64,000 nt of DNA, taken from a virus. How positions within the stretch are numbered: position 1 is the first letter of the stretch; the number at the start of each line of letters is the position of its first letter. Under the pieces are notes generated by a model. It was not told the origin of the DNA and made no database searches. It saw only the letters and a program-made list of their open reading frames with translations. Positions 28,201 to 48,389 of the stretch are shown one piece after another. The translations under genes were made by a program, and so were the position numbers. Where the stretch lies: positions 18,082 through 82,081 of the IMG/VR virus record IMGVR_UViG_3300049491_000955; one strand, given 5' to 3'.

Positions 28201-30546
28201 AATGGGCGATCTGTAAATCCTATTGATTTCCTGAAATCTGGTACTCTTGGAGCCGGTGGCGGAGGCGGACAAATTCAAACTTCTTCTCCTAGTCCTTATA
28301 CTGGCAGCACCAAAGCTTCTTTCTATGGCGCAGGAGATGGATTTGATGGGAAGCCTACAGCTAGCGGGGAAACATTTGATCAAAATAAAATGACTGCTGC
28401 TATCAACGAAACCCTTCGTAAGCAGCTTGGACTAAATTTTGGCACTCAAGTTCAAATCACAAACCCAGCTACCGGACAATCCGTCGTTGTCCGAGTGAAC
28501 GATCATGGCCCATATGAAAAAAAAGGAGGAAAGTTTGTTCCCCACAGTACTCGCGGCTTTGATTTAAGCACGTCTGCCGCGCGGGCGATCGGTTTAGACA
28601 AGGTTGGCGTAGGCAATGTAAACTTCCGTGTACTTGGGCAAGGCGGCGCAACCGGTTCTCCTAACTTGAATAACTCTAGAGCTTATTCTTCTGCCAGTGG
28701 TTTGGCACAAGGGCAATCGAATCCTGGTGGTGTAATGATTGGCGCAGGAGGGAAAGTTGCTTTGGATAACTTGAATCAACAGAATGCCCAAGTTATTGCC
28801 AAATTTGAAGGAAGTCGGAAGCTTGCCCAACTTGATGCCGAAAGAAACGCTCGCCGTGCTCAGTCTCAATTAGAAACTAATCGAATTGAAAATCTTCGTA
28901 GTACAAAAGCTACACAAAGAAATTTGGAAGATTCCAGCTTGGGACTGGGCTATCAAACTTATGGAGTCGAAGCGACTCGACAAGCGATCGCAGTTGAACG
29001 CAAGTATGAAGATCAGGTACAGCAACTTCAAGAGCAACGCGTCAAACAGCAAGAAGCAATAGATACTGCTGAAAGTACTTTGGCTGTGCTGAGATCTAGT
29101 ACAGACGCAGAGATACCTTACAGAAAAGAATACATTCAGAAATTAGAAAAACTTCTTCCTTCTGTTAAAGCAGTTTTGGGACAGATTAACAAACAAATTC
29201 TTGATAGCGCAGAAGCAGAAAGCAAAGAGATTGGAGATATAGAAAAGAAAAGCTATGAAGCTGAAATGATTCGCTTGGGCGAAGCAAAGGACAACTACAG
29301 TCAAGGTAGATCTGAAATACTAAAACGTAATGCCGCCAATCGACGCACTTTAGCAGAAAGAAGTAGATTAAGTATTCCTGATTTGTTTGCTACTTTGGAT
29401 GCAGAGAAAGAAGCAGCATCCCTTGATGCTAGTGTCGCTTACAACTCAACCATTAGGGCTATTGATGAGCAAATAAAAAAAGAAATCAACAAAGATATTC
29501 TTAAGTTATTAAACAGCAGAAAAGCTCAAGCCTTTGCTTCTTTATTAAAAGCTCCAAGGGAAGCTCAGCAACGCTTTGATCGAGAACTCCTTGATAGACA
29601 ACTTACAGAAAGAGGAGAGCACGAAGGACGATTAGATAAAATTTCTGAGTCTAGAAAATCTCTTTTATCGGCTGGCTCTCAATACTTAGGTCGATTCAAT
29701 CTTGGCACAATTGCAAATCCTCTGAACAAGAAAATTGCTCAGATGGGTGCTGAGGATGAATATAGAAGAGGCTCACTAGAAATAGAGCAATTAGCAGCCT
29801 CTGGTAAATATTCTAATGAGCAATTATCCGAGCTACGCAAGAATCTAGAAAGCTTGAATACTATCAAGCTGGAAAATATTCGGGCTGAATTTGATGTATG
29901 GACTGGGGTAATGGAATCGACTAAAGGGCAATTTGAAGGCTTCTTTGGCAGTATGATTCGAGGAACTGCAAGCATTGGAGAAGCTTTTTCAAATCTTATT
30001 GGCGGTATCGCTGATAATCTTGCCAATCTTGCAGCCCAATACCTAACCAATGAAATCTTTGCTTCTATATTTGGGATTTCTAATAAGCCAGCTATTCAAG
30101 AATCCGGAGGAGGTGGATTACTTGGCGGAGGAATTGGTGGCATACTTGGCGGATTACTCGGCTTTGCTAATGGCGGTGAAATTGGCAATTATGCTAATGG
30201 TGGGATTATTGGGGCGATGCAGCGTGAACGGGCAATGACAGGGCGACGCGCTCACTTAATTGTAGCTTCCGAAGGAGAGCGTATTCTAAATCACAAAGAA
30301 GCGCAGATTTGGAATAAAATTACCGGGAGGCTTAATTTTGCTTCTGGTGGCATGATCGGAGCAGACGCGGGCACTCTTTCTGCTAGCGCTGGCGTTGGTG
30401 GGGGACTTACAATCAATGTTCCAATAAATGTTGGCAGTGAATCCAAAGGTGCTTTTGATAAGGGCAAAGAAGCCGCCCTTAAACAAGCAATTATCGCTAC
30501 AGTCGTAAACGAAAGGCGTCCAGGTGGCAGTTTATACCAAGTTTAA
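22261..30546 (+). CDS. tape measure protein with alpha/beta-hydrolase-like, M23 peptidase and RlpA-like DPBB domains
   Basis: 2761 aa; MDLGTLEI start; LEIQSPSKVF; QMAGK..VSQEELRQQLSEAIPGA; HDGVD...HLHY; ASFYG..TASGE..VNDHGP; FANGG and RPGG.L end. Confidence 0.9.
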   Translation: MDLGTLEINFIGSFQQLDRDIARAKTIATQAAKEIESSFKNTNFKITVNDSALSSLNKHLDFKKIHFQQVQQYFNQNPLTVKVDDTSLTKLNKELDIITKQRDVVVNVKANIRQEAELVGTEVGQQVKKSLSNSFKGLGKEVKDAVSLNSGITLGIGQLFGSMLGSQMISGLKRNLGVDVKAAIGSIFDTAAKPLKVFVVDNQDLKASINKAGVLLEERFESAGYKVGEAIIASLESKASTIEGKFNAFTKELIDPNKFQSQLSTLKKDIVDISSDVKGSLFNKQASQEFFGGLGEKISSRREKGLQTRAVPLVRERALQILEENKARNSANAVTSETEQIYIATGGYAGARGLSGKRLAGDLKKQISANDLAIWVKNDDTDLPKEAMSKAKEKAIALMTSMAKPHLRGYSKDAIEMAAQAMAALEKNPNVKVKFLGESGGGFAAEEAEKIVSLMGYGQKADYLGVGTPQFIGGLDSRNRKIISPDETLGAETHKMYAKLGLANVSSSQQNILGVFGHPYENYKEAGIAELQNFIQGMPKRFTSEDISGAKGAAQAFKAHDLKKLDSKQLEKFSEQAFANLQMIRRQILVATTETRQELEEIAKDFEDVYVASAPESREFTQARETIAKAQNIYKHLVPQAGLAAAKVGQELAKELESHQKEFAKVGGQYSGTYGRKYQSINSEMSDLIAKLQATELGVKKAEVKIPLTIPNVPEKAFVEQSAKQVSQAVAETAKQVIENTKKEIVKAQQTSPNTDKIKTQIAAIQEAIKKSQGYLAGTPELSSAYIDTILKVVPEIQKQLNEAIQSLPTEERMSSELGVQLANLKSQIPSMQKRVAEIVKNLNKDITRVASGEPKDSIKSLGNVFTEQLRTAKQFGQGSTQGDALAKDVLAATEKARQSISDLLVSFGQDVPEVIKKAAKIARQQITTSEKGAKTFLGEAKTAGLDTGAGFNEGLKQSIANVQKSAQAMAQIAIDVTEETLEIQSPSKVFERIGRFVGQGFKQGLDTIGQINFKQLFQDLIDSPADSIDKLLGNFSKLSGAAKAIAVAFAGFTVFQLFGSQLIDFGRSTSQVASNLENLERRIKFVSNSSADANKNLEFFRGNAKRLGSDISTSLTQGGAFAAVTRGSSLEGDPTRRIVGAVQQASTVLGATPEQQERGLLALQQMAGKTIVSQEELRQQLSEAIPGAAQVAARAYGLTTQEMNQLIEKGQILAEDFLPRLAQQLSIETSAGLPGALKTSVYAMGRFKNATLEAQESIGKLALPLQTFSLNVLSGGIEKLTGMLPLLINGFQFFILLITKPFWFPIIQGLFSIQANTLLTGISFKTLGASIATFSATALTALAPLLLQFLAFEAVILIFSALKEQYQDFASSIRDNTKQINQSIDELNKSLNKVGTGAAKPLAGNTEELRQRLAYEYNDKIQKNPFSVFSTTRVPVQIKELEDYLSASKELLATSQRLKKESESSTSTKAISDLKLLDAEYQRVQNRRRGLEVNNPGDAKGREALIAQEQDLLRKREEANRTPTTYQTAYATQAKTIKDLIELMEEQKKKGVVTAESEIQLQKLKKGLVEVTEKQEYFAKSTRSSQSSLLEFERSFARLDASLEGTKSRLESLSNISKVTLQSQEASGAITPGQNAFTDSLKQQEQISKQVAANISVIRQKYAELNNQNALQVLNDLGIDKNSTSAELKGRAEENQANPQVKSVLEKLAQVRDLEAETYRLNAQQAEQQNNLVKQIYDSNKAVLEYYQSIQRQTQELSIAAQEAAQTIKLTNVKSKLKAAISGTQDNFVNQFVDSIVQITESLGQIANEEIQAKRQILQNENAYKDIIKQGVDLNRNLPGLAPGATVGSYTGGYNQSLVFPIGGRNNSTISSGYGDRVHPISGKHKFHDGVDYPAPIGTSVVSPMAGVVVGVKYEARGGGKYVVIESLDSKGQKVEHTFMHLDQQMVKEGQQVAAGQQVGTVGNTGGSTGPHLHYRTRINGRSVNPIDFLKSGTLGAGGGGGQIQTSSPSPYTGSTKASFYGAGDGFDGKPTASGETFDQNKMTAAINETLRKQLGLNFGTQVQITNPATGQSVVVRVNDHGPYEKKGGKFVPHSTRGFDLSTSAARAIGLDKVGVGNVNFRVLGQGGATGSPNLNNSRAYSSASGLAQGQSNPGGVMIGAGGKVALDNLNQQNAQVIAKFEGSRKLAQLDAERNARRAQSQLETNRIENLRSTKATQRNLEDSSLGLGYQTYGVEATRQAIAVERKYEDQVQQLQEQRVKQQEAIDTAESTLAVLRSSTDAEIPYRKEYIQKLEKLLPSVKAVLGQINKQILDSAEAESKEIGDIEKKSYEAEMIRLGEAKDNYSQGRSEILKRNAANRRTLAERSRLSIPDLFATLDAEKEAASLDASVAYNSTIRAIDEQIKKEINKDILKLLNSRKAQAFASLLKAPREAQQRFDRELLDRQLTERGEHEGRLDKISESRKSLLSAGSQYLGRFNLGTIANPLNKKIAQMGAEDEYRRGSLEIEQLAASGKYSNEQLSELRKNLESLNTIKLENIRAEFDVWTGVMESTKGQFEGFFGSMIRGTASIGEAFSNLIGGIADNLANLAAQYLTNEIFASIFGISNKPAIQESGGGGLLGGGIGGILGGLLGFANGGEIGNYANGGIIGAMQRERAMTGRRAHLIVASEGERILNHKEAQIWNKITGRLNFASGGMIGADAGTLSASAGVGGGLTINVPINVGSESKGAFDKGKEAALKQAIIATVVNERRPGGSLYQV

Positions 30547-30800
30547 TCTTCTTCTTCTTCTTCTTCTTCTTTGCAGTCTTTAAGAATTATTTCAAATTCT
30601 TCAATAGCAATAATTGCCATTTTTACGCAAGCAACTTCTTGAGGATGCGTAGCAGTTTGCATTTTGTAATTATCAGAAACGTGATAGCCTTGCACAGCAT
30701 AAAATTTCTTCGCAAGTCTTTCAATCAACAAATCTCTGTAAAAAACTCCTAATTCCATCGCCCCCCCTCTTTTTCTTTTCTTTTTACTACTATAACTCAT
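30543..30800 (-). CDS. hypothetical protein (paralog of 31060..31290)
   Basis: LIERLAKKFYAVQGY...MQTA...CVKMAIIA. Confidence 0.65.
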   Translation of the reverse strand: MSYSSKKKRKRGGAMELGVFYRDLLIERLAKKFYAVQGYHVSDNYKMQTATHPQEVACVKMAIIAIEEFEIILKDCKEEEEEEED

Positions 30801-30893
30801 AATATCTCTTTTAGTAATACCTTAGTCAATATTCCTTTGTGTAGCGAAGTAAGTCAACCTCTACAGGGTTTTCGTCATTTTTGCCCTTCATTT

Positions 30894-31070
30894 TTAAGTT
30901 TTTTGCGTTAGTTGATCAATCAAATTTTTAGCTGCTTCAAAAGCTTCTTTTTCTGAGTCAAATCCCGTAACATATTTATTTACTGCTTTTCCCGTGATAT
31001 AGGAAGCGTACTTGTTATTTTTTTCTGTGATAACAATGCTGAAATTTTTGTGTGTTGTTTTAGCAAACAT
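30894..31070 (-). CDS. hypothetical protein (EA.EAA small-protein family)
   Basis: Likely start MFAKTTH; GFDSEKEAFEAAKNLID. Confidence 0.6.
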   Translation of the reverse strand: MFAKTTHKNFSIVITEKNNKYASYITGKAVNKYVTGFDSEKEAFEAAKNLIDQLTQKT

Positions 31071-31290
31071 TTTTAATTTCCTCTTTTTCCTCTTCTTTTT
31101 CTGTACAATTTTCAAGAATTACTTCAATTTTGTTAACGGCAATAATTGCCATTGCTACGCATCTGCGCCTTTCTCGACTTTTAGCACTTTGCATTCTGCA
31201 AGTAGGGGGAGCATAATAACCTTGCACTTTATAAAAGTCTTTAGCTAGCTCTTCAATTAATGCATCTCTTTCTGCGGATTCTATTTTCAC
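31060..31290 (-). CDS. hypothetical protein (paralog of 30543..30800)
   Basis: LIEELAKDFYKVQGY...MQSA...CVAMAIIA. Confidence 0.65.
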   Translation of the reverse strand: MKIESAERDALIEELAKDFYKVQGYYAPPTCRMQSAKSRERRRCVAMAIIAVNKIEVILENCTEKEEEKEEIKNVC

Positions 31291-31350
31291 AATTTTTCTT
31301 TTTTCTTTTTTCTACTATAACCCATAATATCTCTTTTAGCAACACTTTAG

Positions 31351-32799
31351 TCAATATTCCTTTGTGGGTGGCTTATAGTGAAGCAGATCAACCTCTACAG
31401 GGTTTTCGTCGTTTTTGCCTTTCATTTTTAAAGTTCCTTTTCCGCTACCCACTGTTTCGCCCATCTTGTCAGTAGTTGAAATGCAATCGATGCGTGGGCA
31501 AGAATCGATTAACTTGGAGAAGCCAGCTAGCTTGGAAGAAATACTAGTTTGATTCATGGAATGAGCAGTGAGAACTCCTGTGTATCCCCACTTCCTAATG
31601 TTGGTAGTCATTTGTTTTAGGAAAGTAGCCCAGACTTTAGGATCAATATTGTGAACTTCGTACGTATTGGCCTCACAAAGTACGATCGCAACTCTACCTT
31701 TTAGTCCTGTTTTGTCTTTCAAGTAATCCAAGTAGTCATCTTCATCGATTTCTTTTTGGCGAGCTTCGTCTTGGCGATCGCGTATGCTCTTTGGAAAATT
31801 GCTCATAAATTCATTGATAGAATCGATGTCCGACAAAACTGTTACCCCTGCCATTGTTTCCGTAGCAGCCGCACCTTTTCTAATTGTTTCAGGATTGATA
31901 ACTACAACATGGTGTCCCATCTCCCGCAACAAGTCGATGGCCAATCTTTCTAATGTAGATTTACCGCTACCTTGTTCCCCAGAAAGAACTTTAAAGGGCA
32001 TTTTGAGTAATTGGTATATCCATTGATGCTTTTGAGCTAATTGAATTTTCCCCGAACTAGACTTGCTGTCTTTAATCACTTTCTCTTCTGCTTTCTCTAA
32101 ATCCAGTCTTTTTTTGTCAGCTTTGCTTTTATCCCTAAAGTTTTCAGCAATTTTCTTATCAGCATCTGAATGGGCAACAGCACGATTTTTCAAATAATCT
32201 TCAAGTTGTAATCGTCCTTTAGCTTGTTCGTTTTCTGGATCAGTTAATCCAAGGTGTATGCGTTCTTCCGTATCTTGTGCTGTTAGTCCATCTTTTAATC
32301 TATCTGTGTACAACGCCCTCGAATGAGCTTTGGTCTCCCGATAATGCTTGTTATCTTCCCAAGTTCCATAGCCATAAGTTTTTTCTTGCTCATTAAGTTG
32401 GTAGTCTGTTTCATTTAATCTCTGCAATCGAAAATACATTGTTAATGCGGCTCCCCATAGTCCAGCGACCGCAAAACTTCCGCCAAGTAACTGATTAGGA
32501 TTGTCTGTTGGCAATGCCATGACTTCTTGAATTGAATTGCCTTTGTAAGGAATTTTACTACCATACATGCCGTACTTCTTCCATTCTTCGGTGAGCACAT
32601 AGCGAGGTTTTACGCAATACTCTTTGTTGATAACTATCTGCCCTTTTTTACCACTGGCAGACTTAGGACAGAATTTAATTTGAGTTAGATCATAAGCTTG
32701 AGTTGTTTGAGTAGCTACAAAACCTGTCACTGAAACAACTCCGCAAGCTAGTATCACTCCAAATTCAAACAAATTAGTTTTAGTTTTCTTCTTTGTCAT
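31351..32799 (-). CDS. membrane-anchored FtsK/HerA-type P-loop ATPase
   Basis: Two N-terminal TM segments, coiled coil, Walker A GEQGSGKS, degenerate Walker B AIVLCE, and IRKWGYTGVLTAHS (FtsK-like RKxG...TQ). Confidence 0.75.
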   Translation of the reverse strand: MTKKKTKTNLFEFGVILACGVVSVTGFVATQTTQAYDLTQIKFCPKSASGKKGQIVINKEYCVKPRYVLTEEWKKYGMYGSKIPYKGNSIQEVMALPTDNPNQLLGGSFAVAGLWGAALTMYFRLQRLNETDYQLNEQEKTYGYGTWEDNKHYRETKAHSRALYTDRLKDGLTAQDTEERIHLGLTDPENEQAKGRLQLEDYLKNRAVAHSDADKKIAENFRDKSKADKKRLDLEKAEEKVIKDSKSSSGKIQLAQKHQWIYQLLKMPFKVLSGEQGSGKSTLERLAIDLLREMGHHVVVINPETIRKGAAATETMAGVTVLSDIDSINEFMSNFPKSIRDRQDEARQKEIDEDDYLDYLKDKTGLKGRVAIVLCEANTYEVHNIDPKVWATFLKQMTTNIRKWGYTGVLTAHSMNQTSISSKLAGFSKLIDSCPRIDCISTTDKMGETVGSGKGTLKMKGKNDENPVEVDLLHYKPPTKEY

Positions 32800-33106
32800 C
32801 TTTCAAATCCCAAAAATTAATTAATACTTTTTCTGCAACAGTTTCTCCTACTTGATTCCAAAGAACATTTTGTTCTTGGATTTCTGGAAAGGCAGACATT
32901 GAATTTATAGTTTCAAAACAATTGAAATCAATCCAAATTAATTCGCCAAGTTCAGCTAATTCTTGTTTTTCAAGAAAATGAGGATTTACTATATACTCTT
33001 GAATTCTTTCTTGAATTTGTTCTCTGCCACTTTGGTTGTACTTTAACTGATTCCAAAGATTTGAAAACCATAAAACAACTTTAGTTGTGTCGCTGTATTG
33101 ATTCAT
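32780..33106 (-). CDS. hypothetical protein
   Basis: Overlaps the ATPase start; same operon. Confidence 0.65.
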   Translation of the reverse strand: MNQYSDTTKVVLWFSNLWNQLKYNQSGREQIQERIQEYIVNPHFLEKQELAELGELIWIDFNCFETINSMSAFPEIQEQNVLWNQVGETVAEKVLINFWDLKDDKEEN

Positions 33107-33339
33107 TTTTCTGCAACTTTAAACAAAAGAACAACCATAAAAACAGTCATCGAAAGACAAATGCCAACGCTTAGCCAAGGATAAAGAAAGGGATATTGAC
33201 CATAAATAACTGCAAGATTAGAACTGAGTCTATATATAAGATCGTCAACAATTTGGCTAAAAAATACGTAATCTAATTTAAAAAAAATAATAGCTGTTGC
33301 TGTTGTCAAGATTATTTTTAAAAAATTATTGTTTCTCAC
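33103..33339 (-). CDS. small two-TM membrane protein
   Basis: Two hydrophobic segments; overlap-coupled. Confidence 0.65.
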   Translation of the reverse strand: MRNNNFLKIILTTATAIIFFKLDYVFFSQIVDDLIYRLSSNLAVIYGQYPFLYPWLSVGICLSMTVFMVVLLFKVAEK

Positions 33340-33962
33340 TTTCTAAAAACTCCTAATAGTAAAACAAGTGCGATCGCACCAAGTACAGCAAATCCCCAAG
33401 CACCAGCCCACGCATCAGAGCGAGGTTCTTGCTTTTCAAAGATTTGAATATCTTCAGCAATTTCATGAATAGTAGTGTTTGTGATATCTTGAAAATATCG
33501 GTAATCTTGTCCAGCTAAATAAGTAGTGATTGCCGAGCTACCCAAACCAAACACAACTTTGACAGTACTTTGAGCATTATCAACTTCTAGTCCTTCTCCA
33601 GCCTTGTAGTTTACTCTAAAATTGGTCAATCCTGAAAGCGGAACTACGGCACAGCAAGTAAAACAAAGGCTAATTGCTAACCAATAGTTTACTCCTCCGC
33701 CCAAAAGCAATAAACCTTTAGCAAGGAAAAATCCGGTAGCATTCATCGACCACCCCACAAGATATCCAGTAAGCTTCCCTGTTGTTCCGATGACTTGTTT
33801 TCTGTGTAGCTTTCTCTCTTGTAAGTGCTCTGCTAAATCTTTTGGAAGAAGAGTGTCTGGAGCATATTCCATTATTTCTTCTTGCTCTGTCTGTTGCTCG
33901 TTTAATGTATACATGTAATAATAATCCCAGTGTAAACATATTTTGTTTGGCAGCTTATGCAT
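33336..33962 (-). CDS. multi-pass membrane protein (start probably 33914 or 33872)
   Basis: Three to four hydrophobic segments. Confidence 0.7.
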   Translation of the reverse strand: MHKLPNKICLHWDYYYMYTLNEQQTEQEEIMEYAPDTLLPKDLAEHLQERKLHRKQVIGTTGKLTGYLVGWSMNATGFFLAKGLLLLGGGVNYWLAISLCFTCCAVVPLSGLTNFRVNYKAGEGLEVDNAQSTVKVVFGLGSSAITTYLAGQDYRYFQDITNTTIHEIAEDIQIFEKQEPRSDAWAGAWGFAVLGAIALVLLLGVFRK

Positions 33963-33981
33963 AAAGCTGCCAATTTTTTAA

Positions 33982-34656
33982 CTAAAAACCAAAAATAAAA
34001 TCTTTGATTTTTCCAACTACATTATTACTTGCGTAATTTTTTTTGGGCTTAAAAGCCTCTACAGCTTGATCGCCTTCTGCCAGATAATAATTACCCATCT
34101 CTTTGTTGTGCTGAAGATCTACTGTTTGTTGCTTAATTGGAATTCTCAATTCTTCTTTAAGCAATTGATAGTCTTCATCAATAGTAGTCATATGAGCATC
34201 AATCCAAGCTTTAAGTTCAAGTCTCTTTGCTGTTCTCTCATGTCTAAGCTCTTCCTTCCTTTGAGAATTCTCAAAGTCGGTTTGCATTTCATCCAGAGCA
34301 TTGACGAGACTTGTATCTTCTAACGTGGCAGATTGAATTGCTCTTTCAACTGCTTTGCCGCTAACACCTGCTTTCTTGTAGATTTCGGAGAGAACAAGAT
34401 TTAAATCTTCTTGTCCTTGGATAGCTGCAATCATTTGGTCTTTTACTTTGGGAGCAAATTCACTAATTCTTGCTCCGTCTATACCCATCTGCCCAATTAT
34501 TTTTAGAGCTTTTTGATCACCTGTAAGAGCACTAATGATTAGTCCTTGGGACACTCCTGTATTCAGTCTTAGTTGGGCTTGTAAATTGCGGGTTTTTCCT
34601 AAAGTTACCCTGTTTTTTAGCTTCCCAATATGTCCGGCACTTTTCTTTCCAAGCAT
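33982..34656 (-). CDS. helical/coiled-coil protein
   Basis: 224 aa, mostly helical. Confidence 0.7.
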   Translation of the reverse strand: MLGKKSAGHIGKLKNRVTLGKTRNLQAQLRLNTGVSQGLIISALTGDQKALKIIGQMGIDGARISEFAPKVKDQMIAAIQGQEDLNLVLSEIYKKAGVSGKAVERAIQSATLEDTSLVNALDEMQTDFENSQRKEELRHERTAKRLELKAWIDAHMTTIDEDYQLLKEELRIPIKQQTVDLQHNKEMGNYYLAEGDQAVEAFKPKKNYASNNVVGKIKDFIFGF

Positions 34657-34822
34657 CTATATATACCTCGCTACATTCGTAATCCATTCGTCGCATATAT
34701 GCATCAAGTTGAGTTTGATGCTTTTCTTCTCTTTTAAAATTCTCGATACTCACTAGTGGCAAATATATAAAGTAATGAGTACCGAGAATCAAGCTTGTCA
34801 ATCCTGTAAGCAAAACAGCCAC
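34532..34822 (-). CDS. possible single-TM protein
   Basis: N-terminal TM; overlaps the 33982 ORF by 125 nt. Confidence 0.35.
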   Translation of the reverse strand: MAVLLTGLTSLILGTHYFIYLPLVSIENFKREEKHQTQLDAYMRRMDYECSEVYIDAWKEKCRTYWEAKKQGNFRKNPQFTSPTKTEYRSVPRTNH

Positions 34823-34847
34823 CGGTCTTACAGGATTTTTTCTTCTG

Positions 34848-35543
34848 CTACTGCTTAAATCTTGCGGAGATTTCGGCGAAAGCTGTGGTAAGTTCTTCGC
34901 CGCAGCTTTTGTAATCGTTGGTCGATTCCTCCATTGCTGAAGAAAAATTATTCAGCAATCCAACTACGTTGCGATCGCTTTCGTCAATTGTTTGGTACAA
35001 AGATTGAAACTGTGATTGAATGTATTTTTCTTCTTCTGCTAAATAAGTTTTGATTAAGCCAAGCACATGAGTAATCATCTCTCCTCTGCTTGTGCAATTA
35101 GCAGGAATGCTTTTTGCAATTGTTTGAATCTCTTGCTTGTGTAGTTTCAATCCACCTTTTTGCAAAGTCGAACCTACAATTTCTAGCTTTTCAGATTCTG
35201 CTATTAATTGAATTTCTCCTTTAAGCTCAACTGGCTCAACTTGTTCGGGTTGGATTTCTTCTGGCTGAATCTCAAAACTTAAGTTTTCTTCAGGCTTGAT
35301 TAAACTTTGGGAGACGGTGCTTAGTCCACTAGAAGGAGAAATATTTTCTTTTGATTCAAACTTAAGCTTTTCTACTATTTCTTGCATTTGTTCTTCTGTT
35401 GGCTTTTCTTCTGCACTGTTAATCACTGTGTAATATGCCTCTTTGATTTTTTGATAGCTTTTAATTATTTCGTAATTGCGCTTCAGTCTAGATTGAATTC
35501 TTTTAAAGTAAATTTTTTCGTTGTTGTGAAGCTTTTCAGACAT
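34848..35543 (-). CDS. acidic coiled-coil protein
   Basis: 231 aa; gagg RBS; coupled to upstream gene. Confidence 0.7.
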   Translation of the reverse strand: MSEKLHNNEKIYFKRIQSRLKRNYEIIKSYQKIKEAYYTVINSAEEKPTEEQMQEIVEKLKFESKENISPSSGLSTVSQSLIKPEENLSFEIQPEEIQPEQVEPVELKGEIQLIAESEKLEIVGSTLQKGGLKLHKQEIQTIAKSIPANCTSRGEMITHVLGLIKTYLAEEEKYIQSQFQSLYQTIDESDRNVVGLLNNFSSAMEESTNDYKSCGEELTTAFAEISARFKQ

Positions 35544-35544
35544 T

Positions 35545-35967
35545 TTAGTTACCTCTTGTTTTTTCTTTGTACATTAAAGCTTTGATTGTGATTTCAAACA
35601 GATCTTTTCCTAAATAAAAGTTACTTGCTTTAAATCCACCAATCTGTTTGAACCACCTAGATAATGTTGATTGCGACGGTTGTAAGTCAGATAAAGACAA
35701 ATAATTTAAAAATGCTTTACCAGAGTAGTATTGCTCAAAAGATAAATTTGCTCGGTGCTTTAATATCTTTTCTTTTGCGTTTGCTAATCGTTTTATACGT
35801 CCATTAGAAATCTTGTTTAGTCTTAGATAAAGAATTAAATTTTTTTCGGTTAGTTCTAGCTCTAAACTTTCCAAAAAAGTTTTTACTCTCCACCATTCCG
35901 TATCACTTGATCTTGATTCAATTAATTTTTCATACCTTTCTCTCTCCTTAGAGATTGTTATCGTCAT
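35545..35967 (-). CDS. basic DNA-binding protein (HTH-like)
   Basis: Likely start MTITISK after aggag; PSQSTLSRWF recognition-helix-like segment. Confidence 0.65.
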   Translation of the reverse strand: MTITISKERERYEKLIESRSSDTEWWRVKTFLESLELELTEKNLILYLRLNKISNGRIKRLANAKEKILKHRANLSFEQYYSGKAFLNYLSLSDLQPSQSTLSRWFKQIGGFKASNFYLGKDLFEITIKALMYKEKTRGN

Positions 35968-36267
35968 TTTTCTTCTCCTTTTCTTTCCTTTTCTCCTAAT
36001 ACAAACTTCTTTTTTTGCCGTATTACGTATTACGCATGTAATGCCCTGCATTTATGCTTTTTTTAGTATGCATGTACTGTTTTTGAGTATATATGCTTAC
36101 TAAAAACCCTTAAAAAAGACTGCATGTATTACGCACTGTCCATATTTAGGCTTAATATATGAGCGGTGTAATACAGTTTTTCCTGACTGCACTGCCTGAA
36201 ACTCTTTAGGAGTAAGCTTATTCACAATTCACAAGTGATGAATAAGCTTGTTTTTACCCCTAAAAAT

Positions 36268-36396
36268 TTACCTTTTTTCTAAACCCTTCTTTTGACCGAC
36301 AGAATCGCTGTAACGAGGTGGCAGTAACCATCGTGCATCTGCACGGGCAGGTTTTTGACGTTCTGACATCGATTCAAGCTGAAACAGGTCAATCAT
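36268..36396 (-). CDS. small hypothetical protein (42 aa)
   Basis: Read by hand: MIDLFQLESMSERQKPARADARWLLPPRYSDSVGQKKGLEKR; aaagga RBS. Confidence 0.4.
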   Translation of the reverse strand: MIDLFQLESMSERQKPARADARWLLPPRYSDSVGQKKGLEKR

Positions 36397-36428
36397 CAAT
36401 CTTTTCCTTTATTTACTGTTAGCTGAAA

Positions 36429-36710
36429 TTAGTTGCCTAGAAGAACAGAATAAAGACTTTCCACTACTTTGCAGTTAACATGATTGCTTGGCGAGGTCTT
36501 GCAGTAATAATTTGCATTCACCAAGTAACTGCCGAAAGTTAATAGTCCTACTCCAGTAAGCATGATTCCTAGTAGATGAGGAACAAACCCAAATCGTTTT
36601 TTGAAATTATCTCGTTCTTCTTCTTCTGGATCATAATTATTTCCCGCTTCTTGCCAAGTGATAAATTTGCCGTCGTAGTAGAATCCACCTTTCTCTTTTT
36701 TATTGCTCAT
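36429..36710 (-). CDS. single-TM membrane protein
   Basis: LLGIMLTGVGLLTFGSYLV followed by a C-x8-C segment. Confidence 0.65.
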   Translation of the reverse strand: MSNKKEKGGFYYDGKFITWQEAGNNYDPEEEERDNFKKRFGFVPHLLGIMLTGVGLLTFGSYLVNANYYCKTSPSNHVNCKVVESLYSVLLGN

Positions 36711-36939
36711 GGCTTATTCTCGCTGCTAATCTTGCTTGTTTCTCTTCTTCTTTTTTCTCGTGCATCTGCTGGAGTTGCATTATCCCTCCTGTTGTCAACA
36801 ATCCCAATCCGACGTAACCCGCTATTTTTCCTCCATACTTTTGAGAACCAAAATAACCCAATCCTACACACCCAATCAAAAACAAAAAGAATAATGCACT
36901 GTTTTTTGCTGTTCCTAAACTTACTTTTTTCTTTGCCAT
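36700..36939 (-). CDS. two-TM membrane protein
   Basis: Likely start MAKKKVS; two hydrophobic helices. Confidence 0.65.
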   Translation of the reverse strand: MAKKKVSLGTAKNSALFFLFLIGCVGLGYFGSQKYGGKIAGYVGLGLLTTGGIMQLQQMHEKKEEEKQARLAARISHEQ

Positions 36940-37111
36940 TTTATTCACTGCGTGTATTACCTGCTCTCTTTCTTTAATATAAATGCACGGGGGTGCAACT
37001 GTCAAGTAAGTGCACCTCTGTTTTTATTATTTCTTAATGATTAAGGGTGAAAGACTGATTCTGCTGTACATTAAGATTGAGGTGCAAGAACAAACAGAAG
37101 GATGCAAAAGG

Positions 37112-37450
37112 ATGCCAAGGCAGCCAAGAATTTACTATATATTGAGTGAAGAAAATTTAGGCAAGCTAAAAGCTTTGGCAGAGAGTGAAGGGCGATCGCT
37201 CTCCAACCTTACCGGGCGATTTGTTGAGGCTGCTTTAATTCAATCCAGTATTCCAGCCGTTGAACCAGGGCAACTAGATCAGACAGAGGAAGTTATTAGA
37301 TTTCTAAGAAAGTTGGCGCAAAGTGATCGCCCTTCAGATTCAGATTGCATTCTTGCCGCACACGACGCTGGAATCCAAGAGGAGGATCTAATTCAATTAC
37401 GCGATCGCTTATTCACCAAGGAGAAAAACGGAAATGGCATTGCTCACTGA
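37112..37450 (+). CDS. RHH/CopG-like regulator, divergent from the membrane operon
   Basis: PRIYYILSEE...KLKALAESEGRSLSNL..RFVEAAL. Confidence 0.75.
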   Translation: MPRQPRIYYILSEENLGKLKALAESEGRSLSNLTGRFVEAALIQSSIPAVEPGQLDQTEEVIRFLRKLAQSDRPSDSDCILAAHDAGIQEEDLIQLRDRLFTKEKNGNGIAH

Positions 37451-38072
37451 TTTAAATTTCGGGCGTGCTCACATCAGTTTGCGGGCCAGTTCAAAAAATC
37501 AAGCCAAACAGTATGTCCGAGAAGCTACTGGATGGAGTCAACAATTTAAGCAAGATATTTATATTTTCTATCCGGGCAATCCGCGCCCTTATAGAATCCC
37601 AGTATTGAATTCAGAATTAAAAGAAAAACAGATGACTAATATTTTATTGCCTGGAATCCAGATTGCAGAAATGCAAATCTCTTTGCCTTTACTCCAAGTC
37701 TTTAGCGAGTTCTTAGAATATCCAGATCGCAAGTCTGGTTTAATTCGGTTGCGAGATGATCGCCAAATTGCTGTTTCAAATTCTAGTCGAGTTTTGATGA
37801 GAGATGGTGACTTGCTTCGCGCAGTCCAACGCCAACGCTCAGATTATTGGTACTTACCAGATTTGGAATTGATTACACAACGAACTCGGCAAGAACTTGA
37901 GCCAAACAACCCCAACAGTTTCTTTGAATTTAGTTGGCGTTCTCCTGGCAAATCAGAAAGTCCTGAGTGGCGAAGATATACCAATCAATACAGACTTGTC
38001 TCTGATGCCTTTGGCGAACTCTACCAAGTCTCTAACAGCTTAGGTTTTGATGTAGTTGCACCCGTCGTTTAA
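37434..38072 (+). CDS. hypothetical protein, possible PAS-like C-terminal domain
   Basis: aggag RBS; C-terminal pattern loosely PAS-like (inference). Confidence 0.6.
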   Translation: MALLTDLNFGRAHISLRASSKNQAKQYVREATGWSQQFKQDIYIFYPGNPRPYRIPVLNSELKEKQMTNILLPGIQIAEMQISLPLLQVFSEFLEYPDRKSGLIRLRDDRQIAVSNSSRVLMRDGDLLRAVQRQRSDYWYLPDLELITQRTRQELEPNNPNSFFEFSWRSPGKSESPEWRRYTNQYRLVSDAFGELYQVSNSLGFDVVAPVV

Positions 38073-38099
38073 GCAGATTTTAACCGCTGCTATTTTTTT

Positions 38100-38318
38100 T
38101 TGAAAAAAACAATTCTTAGTTGCGATCGCTGTAAGAAAGACATCAGCTTTTTTGATGAGCAGTTTAACGAATTTCTGGCTCAAGAATATCCGGGGTTAGA
38201 CATCTGCGCTGATTGCGACGGGCTTCTAGTTTTGGCGTCATCTTTGCAAACTCATGATTTGATTCGTGGAAACAAGCAGGGAACTGCTCTGAAGAAAATG
38301 TTGGAGCAATACAGTTAA
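38100..38318 (+). CDS. small zinc-finger protein
   Basis: CDRC ... DICADC. Confidence 0.6.
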   Translation: MKKTILSCDRCKKDISFFDEQFNEFLAQEYPGLDICADCDGLLVLASSLQTHDLIRGNKQGTALKKMLEQYS

Positions 38319-40915: not shown

Positions 40916-41336
40916 GGTTTTTTTCTCAAAATTACACTTCAGTTTTTTGTTAAGATTTGTAACAAAAATAGTCAAAATCGCCGTAAGCTTTGCTGTATAT
41001 AACTTGCGTAGAGTATTCATGTATAATAAGTGTATTATAGGACATTGCACTCTCGTCACAGTGATCCTGTATATATAGTCCCTTACGTGACTACTGTTCG
41101 AGCTGATCTTAGTTCAAATGTACTAATAAGAAAAGAGTCGATTTTCAAGATAGATCTTAGAATCCCAAAGATTGCACTCAAAGGCTTACAACTTGGTAGT
41201 CTTCTCCTCAGCAGGCAAGCGGCAAGCTTGGCACAACAGGAATGGCTCAATAGGACTTAGAAGCAACAGACAAGCCTTGCTGGGCAAAATAAACGCAGTA
41301 GAGACGCTGATTAATCGCAGACTGCTATCTGAAAGC

Positions 41337-41715
41337 TGACCAACTACTGTTCCACTGCCAGAATTCTGCTAGTTTACCCAAGAGATTTTGAGGATGTTTG
41401 AGGATGAACGCATTACCTGGCATACATTACAGGTAACTAACTTTAGAAAAATTTGACTAGTGTGACGGGCAAATAGCTCGTAATTGAGTTGGGGCGATCG
41501 CCTAACCGACTACTGTGACATCGCCAGAATTCTGCCAAGTTACCCAAGAGATTTTGAGGATGTTTGGAGATGAACGCATTAGCTGGCATACATTCCAGGC
41601 GACTAACTTTAGAAAAATTTGACTAGTGTGACAGGAGAAGACTGGGGAATTTGGTTGGAGCGATCGCTTGACCAACTACTGTTCCACTGCCAGAATTCTG
41701 CCCGTCACAGTAGTC
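41337..41715. repeat. 166-bp non-coding tandem repeat (2 full units plus a partial; further partial at 42681-42738)
   Basis: Units start at 41337, 41503, 41669 (tgaccaactactgttccactgccagaattctgc). Confidence 0.9.
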
Positions 41716-41797: not shown

Positions 41798-42682
41798 ATG
41801 ACTATTTATTTTGTACAAAACGAAAGAACAAAAAGCATAAAGATTGGATATACCAAAGGTAATTCTTCGGATCGATTAAGAACACTTCAAACAGCGTCTT
41901 GCGAAAAACTTTGTTTATTAAGTCAGATAGAAGGGGATATATTTTTAGAGAAACAATTGCATATTTTATGTATTGATTATCAAATTATGCTTGAGTGGTT
42001 TAAACCAGAATGTTTGTCTGCTTGTGAAAATTTTCTTAAAAAGCCAATAATCTTATGTTGTTATGAATTTGAAAAAGATTCTAGCTCAAATATTAGACCA
42101 AAAGAGAAATTCAGAAGAACTAGAACAAGTAGAATAACTAGAGAAATGATGGACAAAAGTTTATTTAGTTTAGAGCAAGCTGGATTTGTCGAAGTTTTGG
42201 GTTACGAAGGTCTGTATTCTATAAATAAAAAAGGAAATCTTTTCTCTCATAAAACTCAGATATGGATGAAAGGATGTCAAAGATCTGATGGTTGCATGTG
42301 GGTTGGACTAACAAATTCTTCTGGTGTAACGAATAATCACAGAATCGCCAGACTGGTTTTATCAACTTTTGTTGAGCCTCGTCCTAAAGGCGATAGAATC
42401 ATTCACCTTGATGGAAACACACTTAACAACAACCTAGAAAACTTATCTTGGTGCTTTGGTGCTTTTATTCCTTGTTCTTTACCAGGTGGATCAAAAAGAA
42501 GGAATCACGATACAGATCGACTAACAGATCAAGACGTTAGAGACGTTTTTTGGTTTGTCAGTACGAATGTACCTCGAAAAGAAATTGCAATTATGTATGG
42601 GATAACAGAACGGCACGTTTCCAATATTCAGGCTGGAAGAAGACGCTCCAAAGCTTTAGCAGGAATACATTCTTTTGGTTGA
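41798..42682 (+). CDS. T5orf172/GIY-YIG + NUMOD4 + HNH-like endonuclease
   Basis: IYFVQ....IKIGYT; GYEGLYSINKKG; RLVLSTFV...I.HLDGN..NN.LENL.W. Confidence 0.8.
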   Translation: MTIYFVQNERTKSIKIGYTKGNSSDRLRTLQTASCEKLCLLSQIEGDIFLEKQLHILCIDYQIMLEWFKPECLSACENFLKKPIILCCYEFEKDSSSNIRPKEKFRRTRTSRITREMMDKSLFSLEQAGFVEVLGYEGLYSINKKGNLFSHKTQIWMKGCQRSDGCMWVGLTNSSGVTNNHRIARLVLSTFVEPRPKGDRIIHLDGNTLNNNLENLSWCFGAFIPCSLPGGSKRRNHDTDRLTDQDVRDVFWFVSTNVPRKEIAIMYGITERHVSNIQAGRRRSKALAGIHSFG

Positions 42683-47653: not shown

Positions 47654-48389
47654 CAAGACCACTATCAATATTAGTGGCATCGAAATCGACGCTTATACCG
47701 CTGACGAACAGGACAAGCAAGGTAGACCAGTAAATTATTTATCAGGACAGGGAATAGCCTTGAGTATAAATTTACTCCACACTTCGACTGTGCAAAGTAG
47801 AATGTCTCAGGAGCTAAAAACTAGACTGGGAGCAGGTTTTTCTACTGTGCAAGGAAAGTGTAATACTACTGAGAACGCGAAGAATCTTGTATCAAAAATA
47901 TCTTTATGGACAGTTACCAATGCAATCAAGTATTGGCAGTACCATGGAAAACAAGGTAATACAAAAGCGCAAGATATTTTATCTGCCTTGGCAGAGACTG
48001 CGCTAGACATTGTTATTAATGACGCTTTTGGAAAGGATTACGAAAAAGGTCAAGCCCAAACTTGGACTAAATCTCGTTTTGCAGGCAAACAAACTCGTAG
48101 AACTTGGACTGATGCAGTCAGCGATTACATTAATAATAATGAAGTTTCAGAAAACTACAGAACGTGGGTCTACAAGCACGTTTCTGATTCAGTTAATGTG
48201 GCGTTGTTTGGGAAGAAAGCCAAGCAATTGTGTGAAGAAAGAAAGTGCGATCGCAATAGTTTGCGCGATACTCACGATGAAGTCAGCCTGAGGTTGATAG
48301 ACAGAATTGAGGATTACGCGATGCGATTGATTGATAGAGGACTGGAACCTAAACAGGCAATCGCAGAAGCAATTAATTTCTACAAGTAG
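47640..48389 (+). CDS. antirepressor-like protein (shared C-terminal domain)
   Basis: Divergent N-terminal domain; same KSRF.GKQTRRTWTDAV... C-terminus. Confidence 0.8.
   Translation: MLTVRKTTINISGIEIDAYTADEQDKQGRPVNYLSGQGIALSINLLHTSTVQSRMSQELKTRLGAGFSTVQGKCNTTENAKNLVSKISLWTVTNAIKYWQYHGKQGNTKAQDILSALAETALDIVINDAFGKDYEKGQAQTWTKSRFAGKQTRRTWTDAVSDYINNNEVSENYRTWVYKHVSDSVNVALFGKKAKQLCEERKCDRNSLRDTHDEVSLRLIDRIEDYAMRLIDRGLEPKQAIAEAINFYK

Follow-up and report, generated by a model that had tools for sequence, protein, structure and literature searches.

A putative DNA pump operon shared by a tailed phage of filamentous cyanobacteria and plasmids of Nostocales

We analyzed 64,000 nucleotides (the window) of the record IMGVR_UViG_3300049491_000955, which belongs to a tailed phage of filamentous cyanobacteria. 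Besides a 482-aa ATPase, the products of a minus-strand operon at 31351-37005 are five small membrane proteins, two helical proteins and a basic HTH-like protein (Table 1). The ORF coordinates and hydropathy agreed with the original prediction of co-oriented, overlap-coupled minus-strand reading frames with small transmembrane proteins and a final ATPase. The overlaps were 4 nt for both o208/o78 and o78/o108, 20 nt for o108/ATPase and 11 nt for o101/o93, and o168 and o231 were separated by a 1-nt gap. By hydropathy, o96, o93 and o101 each have a single hydrophobic segment, whereas o78 has two and o208 has four. The top-scoring promoter-like site within 30400-38200, TTGACA-18-TATATT (37005-36976, 11/12 matches), lies at the operon head. 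The number of such sites across the region equals the shuffled expectation, and therefore this promoter is assigned by its position. The TTG at 37005, proposed earlier as the start of o101, belongs to the -35 hexamer of this site; the ATG at 36939 is a likelier start.

None of the ten operon proteins reached the curated threshold of a Pfam or NCBIfam family, and PHROGs and PADLOC gave no convincing match. As predicted, no relaxase, VirB4 or pilin was matched among the ten proteins in Pfam and PHROGs. The Relaxase and TrwC Pfam models gave zero matches across the whole 82-kb record. We found neither an integrase nor ParA in the phage, and no published description of the operon.

Table 1. Features of the operon and its flanks (positions in the window).
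Feature	Position	Strand	Description
o101 ORF	36700-37005	minus	small membrane protein; likely start ATG at 36939, giving 36700..36939, ~79 aa
o93	36429-36710	minus	93 aa, one transmembrane helix
Spacer before gene A	36052..36428	minus	non-coding; candidate operator or cis site
Gene A (o168)	35545-36051	minus	basic, HTH-like
Gene B (o231)	34848-35543	minus	acidic; variable linker, conserved C-terminal helical domain
o96	34532-34822	minus	small, N-terminal hydrophobic helix; overlaps 5' end of gene C
Gene C (o224)	33982-34656	minus	soluble, all-helical
Gene D (o208)	33336-33962	minus	polytopic membrane protein
o78	33103-33339	minus	two-TM protein, extra in phage
o108	32780-33106	minus	acidic soluble 108-aa protein, phage-specific
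Gene E (ATPase)	31351-32799	minus	482 aa, membrane-anchored FtsK-clade P-loop ATPase
Promoter-like site TTGACA-18-TATATT	36976..37005	minus	operon head
Tandem duplication downstream	30543..31290	minus	small ORFs o76, o73, o85
Divergent small protein	37010..37450	plus	weak ribbon-helix-helix match; probable start near 37112
Divergent 212-aa protein	37434..38072	plus	no family match

The product of gene A is strongly basic (K+R 38, D+E 17) and has a conserved S-T-x-x-R-W-F helix in the family alignment. Its homologues start near Met37 (35943). It has no Pfam match, and the HTH_17 leads in ESM Atlas were weak. The spacer before this gene holds an 11-bp perfect inverted repeat (arms 36214-36224 and 36239-36249), and GTATTACGCA / TATGCATGTA-type words are repeated directly upstream of the gene. 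The spacer is a candidate operator or cis site, and no cis site as such was identified. For gene B we found no family match in Pfam or PHROGs. Gene C was modelled (AF2, pLDDT 72.4, pTM 0.30) as a small N-terminal helical bundle with a helix of about 150 residues, and had neither a fold nor a sequence match in the PDB. This model is a low-confidence, featureless helical one. The protein encoded by gene D has, besides its hydrophobic segments, an acidic N-terminus (D-T-x-x-P-x-D-x-x-E). The o78 protein, a partial paralogue of D, resembles its C-terminal transmembrane end and clusters with the D family.

In tblastn, none of the plasmid loci matched the o101 protein. The o93 protein is a phage-specific addition whose sole PHROG lead was phrog_2947 (E 0.0014), and o108 matched no family. 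At the 3' end of the operon the last ~28 ATPase codons and a small gene are repeated (30770-30900 vs 31293-31435, 85%; 30542-30629 vs 31072-31161, 78%), and a second partial match was also obtained. The paralogues o76 and o85 lie inside this duplication, which was not found on plasmids. On the opposite strand, the predicted divergent RHH regulator did match RHH_5, but weakly (E 8.9e-5, with 22.6 bits against a cut-off of 26), and the gene is not conserved beside the plasmid copies described below. None of Pfam, PHROGs, PADLOC and NCBIfam supported the PAS-like assignment of the second divergent protein (37434-38072).

The hydropathy and motif positions of E agreed with the predicted ATPase with two N-terminal transmembrane helices (TM1 10-28, TM2 104-122). 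The helices flank a periplasmic domain (~29-103) and are followed by a helical stalk to ~238 and a RecA-type ATPase core (250-482). The three motifs named earlier are GEQGSGKS (274-281), AIVLCE (371-376) and IRKWG...TAHS (401-414). G274, G277, S278, G279, K280, E376 and R402 were invariant across 42 homologues, a set that covers Walker A and, with E376, the glutamate of Walker B.

The AF2 model of E (pLDDT 79.6) had TcpA as its best Foldseek match (6o1x, E 2e-8), followed by the FtsK motor. In VIA-align, residues ~250-482 gave Z scores of 16.2 for TcpA, 15.8 for FtsK, 15.4 for EssC and 14.1 for EccC, and lower ones for HerA (12.5), VirB4 (11.9), TrwB (11.7) and Rad51-type proteins (~11-11.8). 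The modelled core is thus structurally nearest to the FtsK clade, as expected for a translocase fold and not for a NACHT or ABC type; since the protein-secreting EssC and EccC score almost equally, the fold cannot separate a DNA from a protein substrate. E did not match the FtsK_SpoIIIE Pfam model. It differs from FtsK in having neither the alpha nor the gamma domain, from TraB in having no C-terminal DNA-recognition domain, and from EssC and EccC in having one ATPase domain instead of three. A profile search yielded 63 distant relatives, among which 42 matched DUF87 (HerA central domain), 13 AAA_10 and 4 FtsK_SpoIIIE. In one relative, P0142, the N-terminal module matches that of E (hhalign probability 99.9%, E 2.2e-37) and the motor is canonical (FtsK_alpha, E 2.2e-6; FtsK_SpoIIIE, E 1.5e-9). 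By these profiles it is a natural domain swap, with the module of E on a canonical FtsK alpha/beta motor.

The predicted syntenic conservation of the neighbours was observed for five genes, in the order A-B-C-D-ATPase, across 16 loci (A 14, B 13, C 15, D 15, E 16). The operon is thus more than a chance arrangement, as five ORFs keep the same order in 13-16 of the 16 loci. Further, o96 was conserved in 5/16 loci, which are the closest plasmid relatives. The similarity of C and D followed that of the module at the N-terminus of E (Spearman 0.97 and 0.93, 14 loci) and not that of its ATPase domain (-0.50 and -0.71, 14 loci). Therefore the membrane part of E, C and D appear to form one unit with an exchangeable motor. 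Sequence comparison shows this mosaic inheritance; since C and D adjoin the 5' half of E, plain linkage could also account for their co-inheritance. A model of D with E(1-135) hints at a contact between the two, with a median ipSAE of 0.59 in three runs, against 0.00 for the highest of three controls, on a scale where 58/80 solved complexes and 2/110 mismatched pairs reached the mark, and where passing values of ≤0.60 came from only 7/80 solved complexes and from both passing mismatches. At least 95% of the contacts agreed between runs, and the partner pLDDT was at least 70, with alignments built for this analysis.

The A-B-C-D-ATPase cassette of plasmids is a new finding. It is native to the backbones of small plasmids of Nostocales, the heterocyst-forming cyanobacteria, usually beside a divergent replication gene. 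We found it on 39 plasmids in PLSDB, only from Nostoc, Calothrix, Tolypothrix and Microchaete. Several plasmids of the same strain often had it, with as many as four in one strain that each held their own copy. Among the examined loci, a divergent replication-type gene (Prim-Pol/PriCT-2/DUF3987 or DUF3854) adjoins it in L005, L007, L015, L017 and L025. By plasmid typing, none of the 39 plasmids is conjugative, 29/39 have a relaxase and 10/39 have no recognised one; plasmids typed as non-mobilizable also hold intact copies. With this plasmid home, the analogy with Streptomyces plasmids drawn in the original prediction is stronger than was supposed. We detected nothing homologous to TraB, Spd or Kor proteins. 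The expected enrichment in filamentous hosts was observed (27/101 HetR-positive cyanobacterial genomes, 0/300 HetR-negative), but every named carrier belongs to Nostocales, essentially a single clade, and therefore the figures give no independent evidence for a link with growth form. The restriction may simply reflect the plasmid host range.

The operon is borne by this phage but is not typical of phages: it is a plasmid cassette. A search of 50,697 deposited phage genomes found it in none, and IMG/VR yielded a single distant relative, one other viral contig with the ATPase domain only. An 82,591-bp contig (the 82.6-kb relative) carries near-identical copies of two genes, E (89% identity) and C (P0253, 94%), and the freshwater metagenome of a second study holds near-identical fragments. 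Plasmid copies of C were 56-59% identical, and the nearest plasmid cassettes just 50-60%. In comparison with three plasmid stretches, the cassette genes were the only genes shared with the phage. The phage has added the small membrane proteins o101, o93 and o78, the acidic o108 and the divergent small regulator. The best reading is that the phage captured a copy of the plasmid cassette. Since the phage encodes its own small terminase, large terminase and portal, E is not its packaging motor.

Taken together, the operon is probably a DNA pump. Our main reading, to which we give a probability of roughly 0.45, is a plasmid-derived DNA-translocation apparatus of TraB/TcpA type captured by the phage. 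The two helices flanking the periplasmic domain would anchor E in the cytoplasmic membrane, and E would form an oligomeric ring at the end of the helical stalk. Working with D on a scaffold of C and B, it would use ATP to export the double-stranded DNA of the element itself, either out of the cell or into an adjoining one, and could so serve spread along filaments. Protein A would pick the DNA for transport, and a relaxase encoded in cis would not be required. Such a mechanism would resemble that of Streptomyces TraB with the Spd proteins and that of clostridial TcpA. The envelope of Nostocales includes an outer membrane, and their septa contain peptidoglycan. The cassette has no gene for a secretin, a pilus or a peptidoglycan hydrolase, and therefore does not explain the path past the inner membrane.

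E might instead be a plasmid coupling protein of TcpA type, delivering a single strand with its bound relaxase to the type IV secretion system that a large conjugative (MPF-C) plasmid supplies in trans, with A-D as relaxosome or docking accessories. Coupling proteins usually have two N-terminal transmembrane helices, a layout that E shares, and one of them, TcpA, is its top structural match. The 29 plasmids typed as mobilizable lack mating-pair genes, and their relaxases are of the MOBF or MOBP type. Conjugative plasmids with VirB4 and VirD4 are known in Nostocales (PMC8600333). We nevertheless consider this unlikely: the phage matched neither relaxase model, the ten plasmids with no recognised relaxase still keep full-length copies, and a relaxase, where seen, is distant from the cassette (~17 kb on a 37-kb Tolypothrix plasmid). 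Moreover, E scores lower against VirD4/TrwB-type structures (Z 11.7) than against the FtsK clade and has no VirD4- or TrwB-type Pfam match, and a plain coupling protein would not be expected to have a ~110-residue stalk or to come with four partner genes that are conserved. To a similar degree we doubt that the cassette acts, by transport or by blocking, on a substrate other than the element's own DNA, either as a minimal type-VII-like exporter of B, C or o108 or in entry exclusion or anti-phage ejection of incoming DNA. The near-equal EssC and EccC scores, the small helical or acidic nature of B, C and o108, the defence genes that adjoin the cassette on some plasmids (for example restriction-modification genes, or a Piwi gene together with one for a PD-(D/E)XK nuclease) and the HerA-type matches of distant E relatives, a type found in defence systems too, are consistent with such a role. 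The single ATPase domain of E is not; no operon protein matched WXG100, PADLOC matched nothing outside the P-loop region, and the cassette opens with a gene for a basic HTH-like protein. In the examined loci, one copy per plasmid at a fixed site beside the replication gene also fits a backbone function better than cargo.

FtsK and SpoIIIE clear or distribute chromosomes across the closing septum, and a septum-targeted pump of this kind could do the same for element copies at division, keeping the plasmid or phage genome in each cell of the filament. The adjoining replication gene, the separate copy on each plasmid within a strain, the position downstream of parM in the same orientation on pCENA543e and the lack of a detected ParA in the phage all suit this explanation, which we also regard as unlikely, as the carrier plasmids also encode ordinary ParA or ParM systems and septal DNA clearance needs neither a conserved periplasmic domain nor a polytopic partner. 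To our knowledge there is also no precedent for a plasmid-specific FtsK. The least probable of the explanations is that the phage acquired the cassette recently, as a passenger that plays no part in the phage life cycle. Its rarity among viral sequences, the sharing of nothing but the cassette genes with the compared plasmid stretches and the duplication scar at its 3' end would fit. However, the divergence from the nearest plasmid copies indicates that the capture was not recent. All operon ORFs are open with intact catalytic residues, the 82.6-kb relative keeps E and C, and the phage copy has acquired genes and a promoter-like site of its own.

The minus-strand operon of the original prediction was present. 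It lies on the opposite strand, immediately past the tape measure gene, and several of its junctions overlap by 4-20 nt. The five genes A to E form the cassette, with E encoding a 482-aa ATPase. The head of the operon carries the best promoter-like site of the region, TTGACA-18-TATATT; its position makes the annotated TTG start of o101 the -35 box, and the true start of o101 is probably the ATG at 36939. By hydropathy, E had two membrane helices, D four hydrophobic segments and o78 two, while o96, o93 and o101 had a single one each; protein A was strongly basic. Of the two divergent products that had been proposed, an RHH regulator and a PAS-like protein, the former has an RHH match, but of only 22.6 bits against a cut-off of 26, and the latter found no support in Pfam, PHROGs, PADLOC or NCBIfam. 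A repeat scan of the leader gave short words and one 11-bp inverted repeat, and no clt-like repeat was recognised in it. Long inverted repeats flanking the operon were not found. A tandem duplication lies downstream, and the paralogous small genes o85 and o76 are evidently its product.

Coordinates of the operon, of the genes divergent from the cassette in compared loci and of other phage features (window positions unless stated; strand given where assigned)
Feature	Position	Strand	Remark
o101	36700-37005	-	no core family
o93	36429-36710	-	no core family
Spacer, 377 bp	36052-36428	-	between o93 and gene A
o168, gene A	35545-36051	-	
o231, gene B	34848-35543	-	
o96	34532-34822	-	
o224, gene C	33982-34656	-	
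o208, gene D	33336-33962	-	
o78	33103-33339	-	
o108	32780-33106	-	
ATPase, gene E	31351-32799	-	
Promoter-like site	37005-36976		operon head
Tandem duplication	30542-31435		
Duplication, one pair	30770-30900 and 31293-31435		85% identity, includes last ATPase codons
Duplication, second pair	30542-30629 and 31072-31161		78% identity
Locus L007	505-4053 (locus)		PriCT-2 gene, divergent from cassette
Locus L015	963-4892 (locus)		Prim-Pol gene, divergent from cassette
Locus L017	588-3812 (locus)		Prim-Pol + PriCT-2 + DUF3987 gene, divergent from cassette
Locus L005			DUF3854-annotated gene, divergent from cassette
Locus L025			DUF3987-annotated gene, divergent from cassette
Distant viral locus L006	5786-10211 (IMGVR_UViG_3300041586_000139)		355-aa two-TM ATPase
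Terminal direct repeat, 554 bp	record 1-554 and window 63447-64000		99.3% identity
Tape measure gene	22261-30546	+	
M/L/J-type tail tip genes	61074-63998 and record 1-3170	-	
Inverted repeats, 230-260 bp	19951-20209 vs 47215-47442 and 48123-48379		77% identity, in antirepressor-like genes
5-hmdU DNA kinase	56358-57299		helical domain
D12 adenine methyltransferase	record 12813-13622		
Tandem repeat (166-bp period) and adjoining gene	41336-41702 and 41798-42682		T5orf172/MUG113 and HNH-type matches in gene

The motifs previously read from E were all present and conserved; GEQGSGKS, E376 of AIVLCE and R402 were invariant in 42 homologues, and R402 is a candidate arginine finger. The best Pfam match of E was Zeta_toxin (20 bits, below cut-off), the remaining matches covered the P-loop region only, and the FtsK_SpoIIIE (PF01580) and DUF87 models gave no match at an E-value up to 1. 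We modelled E by AF2 on 42 homologues (pLDDT 79.6). The model begins with a helix (residues 3-30) and a small alpha/beta domain (about 38-96), continues with a long helix (103-182) that starts with the second hydrophobic segment and with a second helix (188-238), and has a RecA-type core at 256-471. A domain of ~75 residues, probably periplasmic, lies between the helices, and a helical stalk of ~110 residues follows. Since lysines precede the first transmembrane helix and arginines come after the second, residues 29-103 would be periplasmic; within them F43 and P45 are invariant and C62 nearly so. The ATPase core is the last part of the model, which stops at residue 482, and some relatives have a conserved C-terminal extension of about 50-60 aa.

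The predicted FtsK-type fold stood when checked on this model, as the core of E was nearest to FtsK-clade structures. VIA-align gave Z 16.2 for TcpA (6o1x; rmsd 3.4 over 203 residues, 14% identity), 15.8 for the P. aeruginosa FtsK motor bound to dsDNA, 15.4 for EssC and 14.1 for EccC, followed by HerA (12.5), VirB4 (11.9), TrwB (11.7) and Rad51-type proteins (about 11-11.8). Foldseek ranked TcpA of pCW3 first (E-value 2e-8) and the FtsK motor next, with values ranging to 3.6e-7. A profile search of 1.84 billion representatives with E retrieved 458 relatives at an E-value up to 0.001. We took 63 of these, from among the more distant or longer, for a Pfam scan, in which DUF87 (the HerA central domain) matched 42, AAA_10 13, FtsK_SpoIIIE four and TrwB_AAD_bind one. 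As E itself has no direct Pfam match, its FtsK-clade membership rests on fold and transitive homology; on the model, we place it with confidence as a membrane-anchored member of this clade.

None of the ten operon proteins gave anything above thresholds in Pfam, PHROGs, PADLOC and NCBIfam, and A-D had no match in these databases or in PDB sequences. PDB sequence and profile searches of E, C, A and D returned P-loop or chance matches only. In the ESM Atlas, C and A retrieved clusters of their own families only, to which A added HTH leads scoring below 0.9. The AF2 model of C is one long helix, with no Foldseek match in PDB at an E-value up to 0.001.

We used a word-indexed search and obtained 113 homologues of E, whose named sources were all heterocyst-forming genera (Tolypothrix, Nostoc, Calothrix, Scytonema, Richelia, Rivularia, Hassallia, Spirirestis, Iphinoe, Amazonocrinis) or unclassified cyanobacterial MAGs. 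By tblastn in PLSDB the cassette was detected on 39 plasmids (Nostoc 15, Calothrix 12, Tolypothrix 8, Microchaete 4), most of them of 25-60 kb and up to four per strain. Mobility typing called 29 of these mobilizable, 10 non-mobilizable and none conjugative, and the plasmids typed non-mobilizable keep full-length cassette copies. Scans of contigs by peptide patterns gave at least 15 loci in genome contigs and at least two in metagenome contigs; an 82,591-bp JGI contig was not among the matches listed in the metagenome scan.

For synteny we compared the window with 15 loci from plasmids or contigs, 16 loci in all. Family A was present in 14 of them, B in 13, C and D in 15 each and E in all 16, always in the order A-B-C-D-E, so that the expected conservation of the neighbours of the ATPase was borne out (13-16 of 16). 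The gene o96 recurs in the five closest loci. In comparison with the plasmid loci, o101, o93, o108, the downstream small genes and the divergent genes were found in the phage only, and among window ORFs of at least 50 aa the cassette genes alone matched the three plasmid stretches compared. Several plasmid loci carry a large replication-type gene divergent from the cassette (see table); the remaining upstream genes that we scanned included one Tn3 transposase gene and two without a match to any family. The large Prim-Pol, PriCT-2, DUF3987 or DUF3854 proteins are likely the replication initiators of this plasmid group. We regard it as firm that E has conserved partners and that small Nostocales plasmids have the cassette as part of their backbone.

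HetR is a marker of filament-forming cyanobacterial lineages. In a sample of 401 genomes spread evenly over the phylum, E matches (E-value up to 1e-10) were found in 27 and HetR (Peptidase_S48, PF03574) in 101; all carriers were HetR-positive (27/101 vs 0/300 HetR-negative genomes, Fisher p = 3.6e-18). This proxy pools Nostocales with other HetR-positive orders, and the carriers among HetR-positive genomes are probably one clade. The pattern shows restriction and does not argue for a causal link to filamentous growth. A set of four HetR-positive genomes (G219, G333, G343, G391) had weak E matches only (E-value about 1e-14 to 1e-15); the matching open frames were of about 620-627 aa and may represent a more distant ATPase branch in another filamentous lineage. 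The HetR frames of these genomes also stand apart in length, at about 354 aa.

We observed at least four different P-loop domains in combination with the N-terminal module of E (two helices, periplasmic domain and stalk). One is that of the E protein in the window; another is found on many plasmids, and there the alignment to this protein covers only its residues about 5-293; a third is that of the relative P0132; the fourth, in P0142 (3.3-kb Logan contig), is a canonical FtsK alpha domain with an FtsK/SpoIIIE motor. The N-terminal module of P0142 is certainly homologous to that of E, with an hhalign probability of 99.9% (E-value 2.2e-37). P0142 and P0132 share a conserved C-terminal tail of ~50 aa with many W, L, T, G and E residues, which is also present in the 540-aa forms. 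Over 14 loci, the similarity of C and D to the phage copies tracked the N-terminal module of E (Spearman 0.97 and 0.93) and did not track its ATPase domain (Spearman -0.50 and -0.71). This pattern argues that C and D are passed on together with the membrane module as a single unit and that the motor is exchangeable, although plain linkage of adjacent genes could be an alternative. A swappable motor on a constant membrane module would be a natural experiment in the assembly of such machines. For the predicted complex of D with residues 1-135 of E, the median ipSAE over three runs was 0.59, and the highest value among three controls was 0.00. The mark applied was passed by 58 of 80 solved complexes and by 2 of 110 mismatches; only 7 of the 80 solved complexes, and both passing mismatches, did so with an ipSAE of 0.60 or less. 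At least 95% of contacts agreed between the runs and partner pLDDT was at least 70. These models hint that D may contact the N-terminal part of E.

In the phage copy every ORF is open and the catalytic residues of E are intact. The source sample of the phage record is a freshwater sediment metagenome. The 82,591-bp JGI contig encodes E at 89% and C at 94% identity, and a second study's freshwater metagenome contains short near-identical fragments. Identity between the phage copy and the nearest plasmid copies is only 50-60%, so the capture was not recent, and we take it as firm that the phage holds a diverged, intact cassette. No relaxase was detected in the whole 82-kb record by two Pfam families, Relaxase and TrwC. 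The Phage_integrase and CbiA (ParA-type) models, the two other families searched, gave nothing in the whole record, and we rejected a prophage or a phage-plasmid on this basis. We also rejected E as the packaging ATPase, as the phage has its own terminase and portal. A homologue of E was absent from 50,697 INPHARED phage records, and a search of IMG/VR with E gave one distant relative. The operon of this two-TM ATPase (L006; 24% identity over the core) also encodes small membrane proteins, which are unrelated, and the second gene downstream specifies a protein anchored in the membrane that combines M23 peptidase and SLT transglycosylase domains. Profiles of A, C and D showed no relationship to the neighbours of this ATPase, and therefore L006 shares the ATPase domain only.

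We compared the cassette with known systems. TcpA of the C. perfringens plasmid pCW3, the best structural match, is likewise plasmid-borne and is said to have transmembrane helices at its N-terminus and, after them, one FtsK-like ATPase domain, the arrangement seen in E. However, the two are 14% identical, E has no FtsK_SpoIIIE match and it has the periplasmic domain and the stalk, while the cassette gave no match to other Tcp/T4SS parts (VirB4-, VirB6- and VirB8-like proteins, hydrolase). According to the available text of PMC3548315, TcpA homologues are known only in Firmicutes, and TraB homologues are reported only in Actinobacteria. The Streptomyces TraB/Spd/Kor-TraR systems (pSVH1, pSG5, pIJ101) also combine, on a small plasmid backbone, a replication gene and an FtsK-like membrane ATPase with several small membrane or uncharacterised proteins and a DNA-binding regulator, in a multicellular filamentous host. 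TraB is described as not requiring a relaxase (PMC4447253, PMC3548315). In contrast, 29 of the 39 carrier plasmids also have relaxases, E has no C-terminal winged-helix domain for a clt-like site, the cassette host is Gram-negative with an outer membrane, and A-D showed no detectable sequence homology to anything in a comparison that held no Spd reference profiles. TdtA of Thermus thermophilus ICEth1 is described as a membrane-located hexameric ATPase proposed to push dsDNA from the donor without a T4SS (PMC5365140). It resembles E, by description only, as a mobile-element-encoded membrane ATPase, but its partners in a 4-gene operon are a NurA-like nuclease and a restriction enzyme. The cassette appears to be outside the TraB, TcpA, VirD4 and EssC families as defined. 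By analogy, it would be a mobile-element DNA translocation system with an FtsK-like motor, the substrate being inferred.

Each element has its own FtsK-type motor, with a replication gene adjoining and a basic, HTH-like lead protein, which makes translocation of its own DNA the most economical function. We give this reading a probability of about 0.45; Streptomyces TraB with Spd proteins (PMC4447253) and TcpA of pCW3 would be its closest working models. Against DNA transfer, E has no recognisable DNA-recognition domain and the cassette has no envelope-crossing parts. E might instead serve as a coupling protein for the relaxases of the mobilizable carriers, which we consider unlikely: it has no VirD4/TrwB Pfam match and TrwB scored below the FtsK clade. 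Because ten plasmids are without a recognised relaxase and the phage gave no relaxase match, a relaxase-independent, double-strand mode is favoured over the coupling role.

Another point against DNA transfer is that the fold of E does not separate DNA pumps from the protein-exporting EssC/EccC. These type VII ATPases have two transmembrane helices and a stalk, as E does, and are likewise encoded in operons with small membrane and helical proteins. They differ in having three ATPase domains against one in E; no WXG100 match was found by Pfam among the ten operon proteins and no EssB/YukC or EsaA match in the operon, and the cassette is plasmid-borne, adjoining replication genes. PADLOC gave only RecD-like, P-loop-level matches for E (residues 215-319, E-value 2e-6 to 1.6e-5), and its defence models gave nothing for A-D. 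A secretion, exclusion or defence system is in our opinion improbable. FtsK and SpoIIIE share with E the RecA-type beta-domain fold, membrane anchoring and a long linker, and P0142 joins the N-terminal module found in E to genuine alpha and beta domains of FtsK. FtsK has four membrane helices and E two, no alpha or gamma domain was matched in E, and E is found on mobile elements in several copies per strain; we regard a segregation device as quite unlikely. It is also very unlikely that the cassette is a mere passenger, an explanation which concerns only the phage copy, diverged from the plasmid copies yet with all its frames open.

Translocation of the element's own DNA would matter for plasmid biology. 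In the available text of PMC8600333, 88% of 424 cyanobacterial plasmids are called "likely immobile", as they lack the full relaxase/VirB4/VirD4 set; that text sorts plasmids by these three alone and does not mention such a cassette. We found no description of it in the full-text literature, subscription journals and supplementary tables lying outside this scope. A pump cassette adjoining replication genes is a testable candidate for how small Nostocales plasmids move or persist in a multicellular host. A cyanobacterial pump branch with different partners would extend the TraB/TcpA picture beyond Actinobacteria and Firmicutes, and it would mean that filamentous bacteria have, in a second and independent instance, put FtsK-like motors to use on mobile DNA. 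Given the phage copy, one may ask whether phages that infect filamentous bacteria can pass from one cell to the next; the available text of a 2026 preprint (10.64898/2026.02.14.705889) mentions "potential cell-to-cell spread" of Anabaena phages, from microscopy alone. As a long shot, multicellular cyanobacteria might host Streptomyces-like, relaxase-independent dsDNA transfer, in which FtsK-like pumps of a new branch, with membrane partners of their own, would move small Nostocales plasmids now scored as 'mobilizable' or 'immobile' between cells or filaments and would have been co-opted by a tailed phage for virion-free passage of its genome to neighbouring cells of the filament. If so, the phage module would be a bacterial counterpart of viral movement proteins.

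The source record (82,081 bases in IMG/VR, of which the window covers 18082-82081) belongs to a tailed phage. Its first 18 kb encode the small and the large terminase subunit, a portal of Mu type and tail protein L. The window has genes for a prohead protease, a tape measure protein of 2761 aa, a tail tip protein of J type, a helicase of UvrD/RecD type and a 5-hmdU DNA kinase. The direct repeat at the record ends, both of which fall inside the J-type tail gene, indicates that the phage genome is essentially complete. It is probably ~81.5 kb in size and circularly permuted or terminally redundant; the database entries give the record as linear (IMG/VR) and 69% complete (CheckV). The tail module is split, with the tape measure gene and the M/L/J-type tail tip genes on different strands and ~30 kb apart. 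Inverted repeats lie in antirepressor-like genes, and large invertible regions are reported for Nostocales phages in the available text of the same preprint (10.64898/2026.02.14.705889). The matches to the 5-hmdU DNA kinase helical domain (E-value 2e-43) and to D12 adenine methyltransferase (5.7e-52) suggest that the phage DNA may carry hypermodified thymidine and methylation. A tandem repeat with a 166-bp period adjoins a gene with T5orf172/MUG113 and HNH-type matches.
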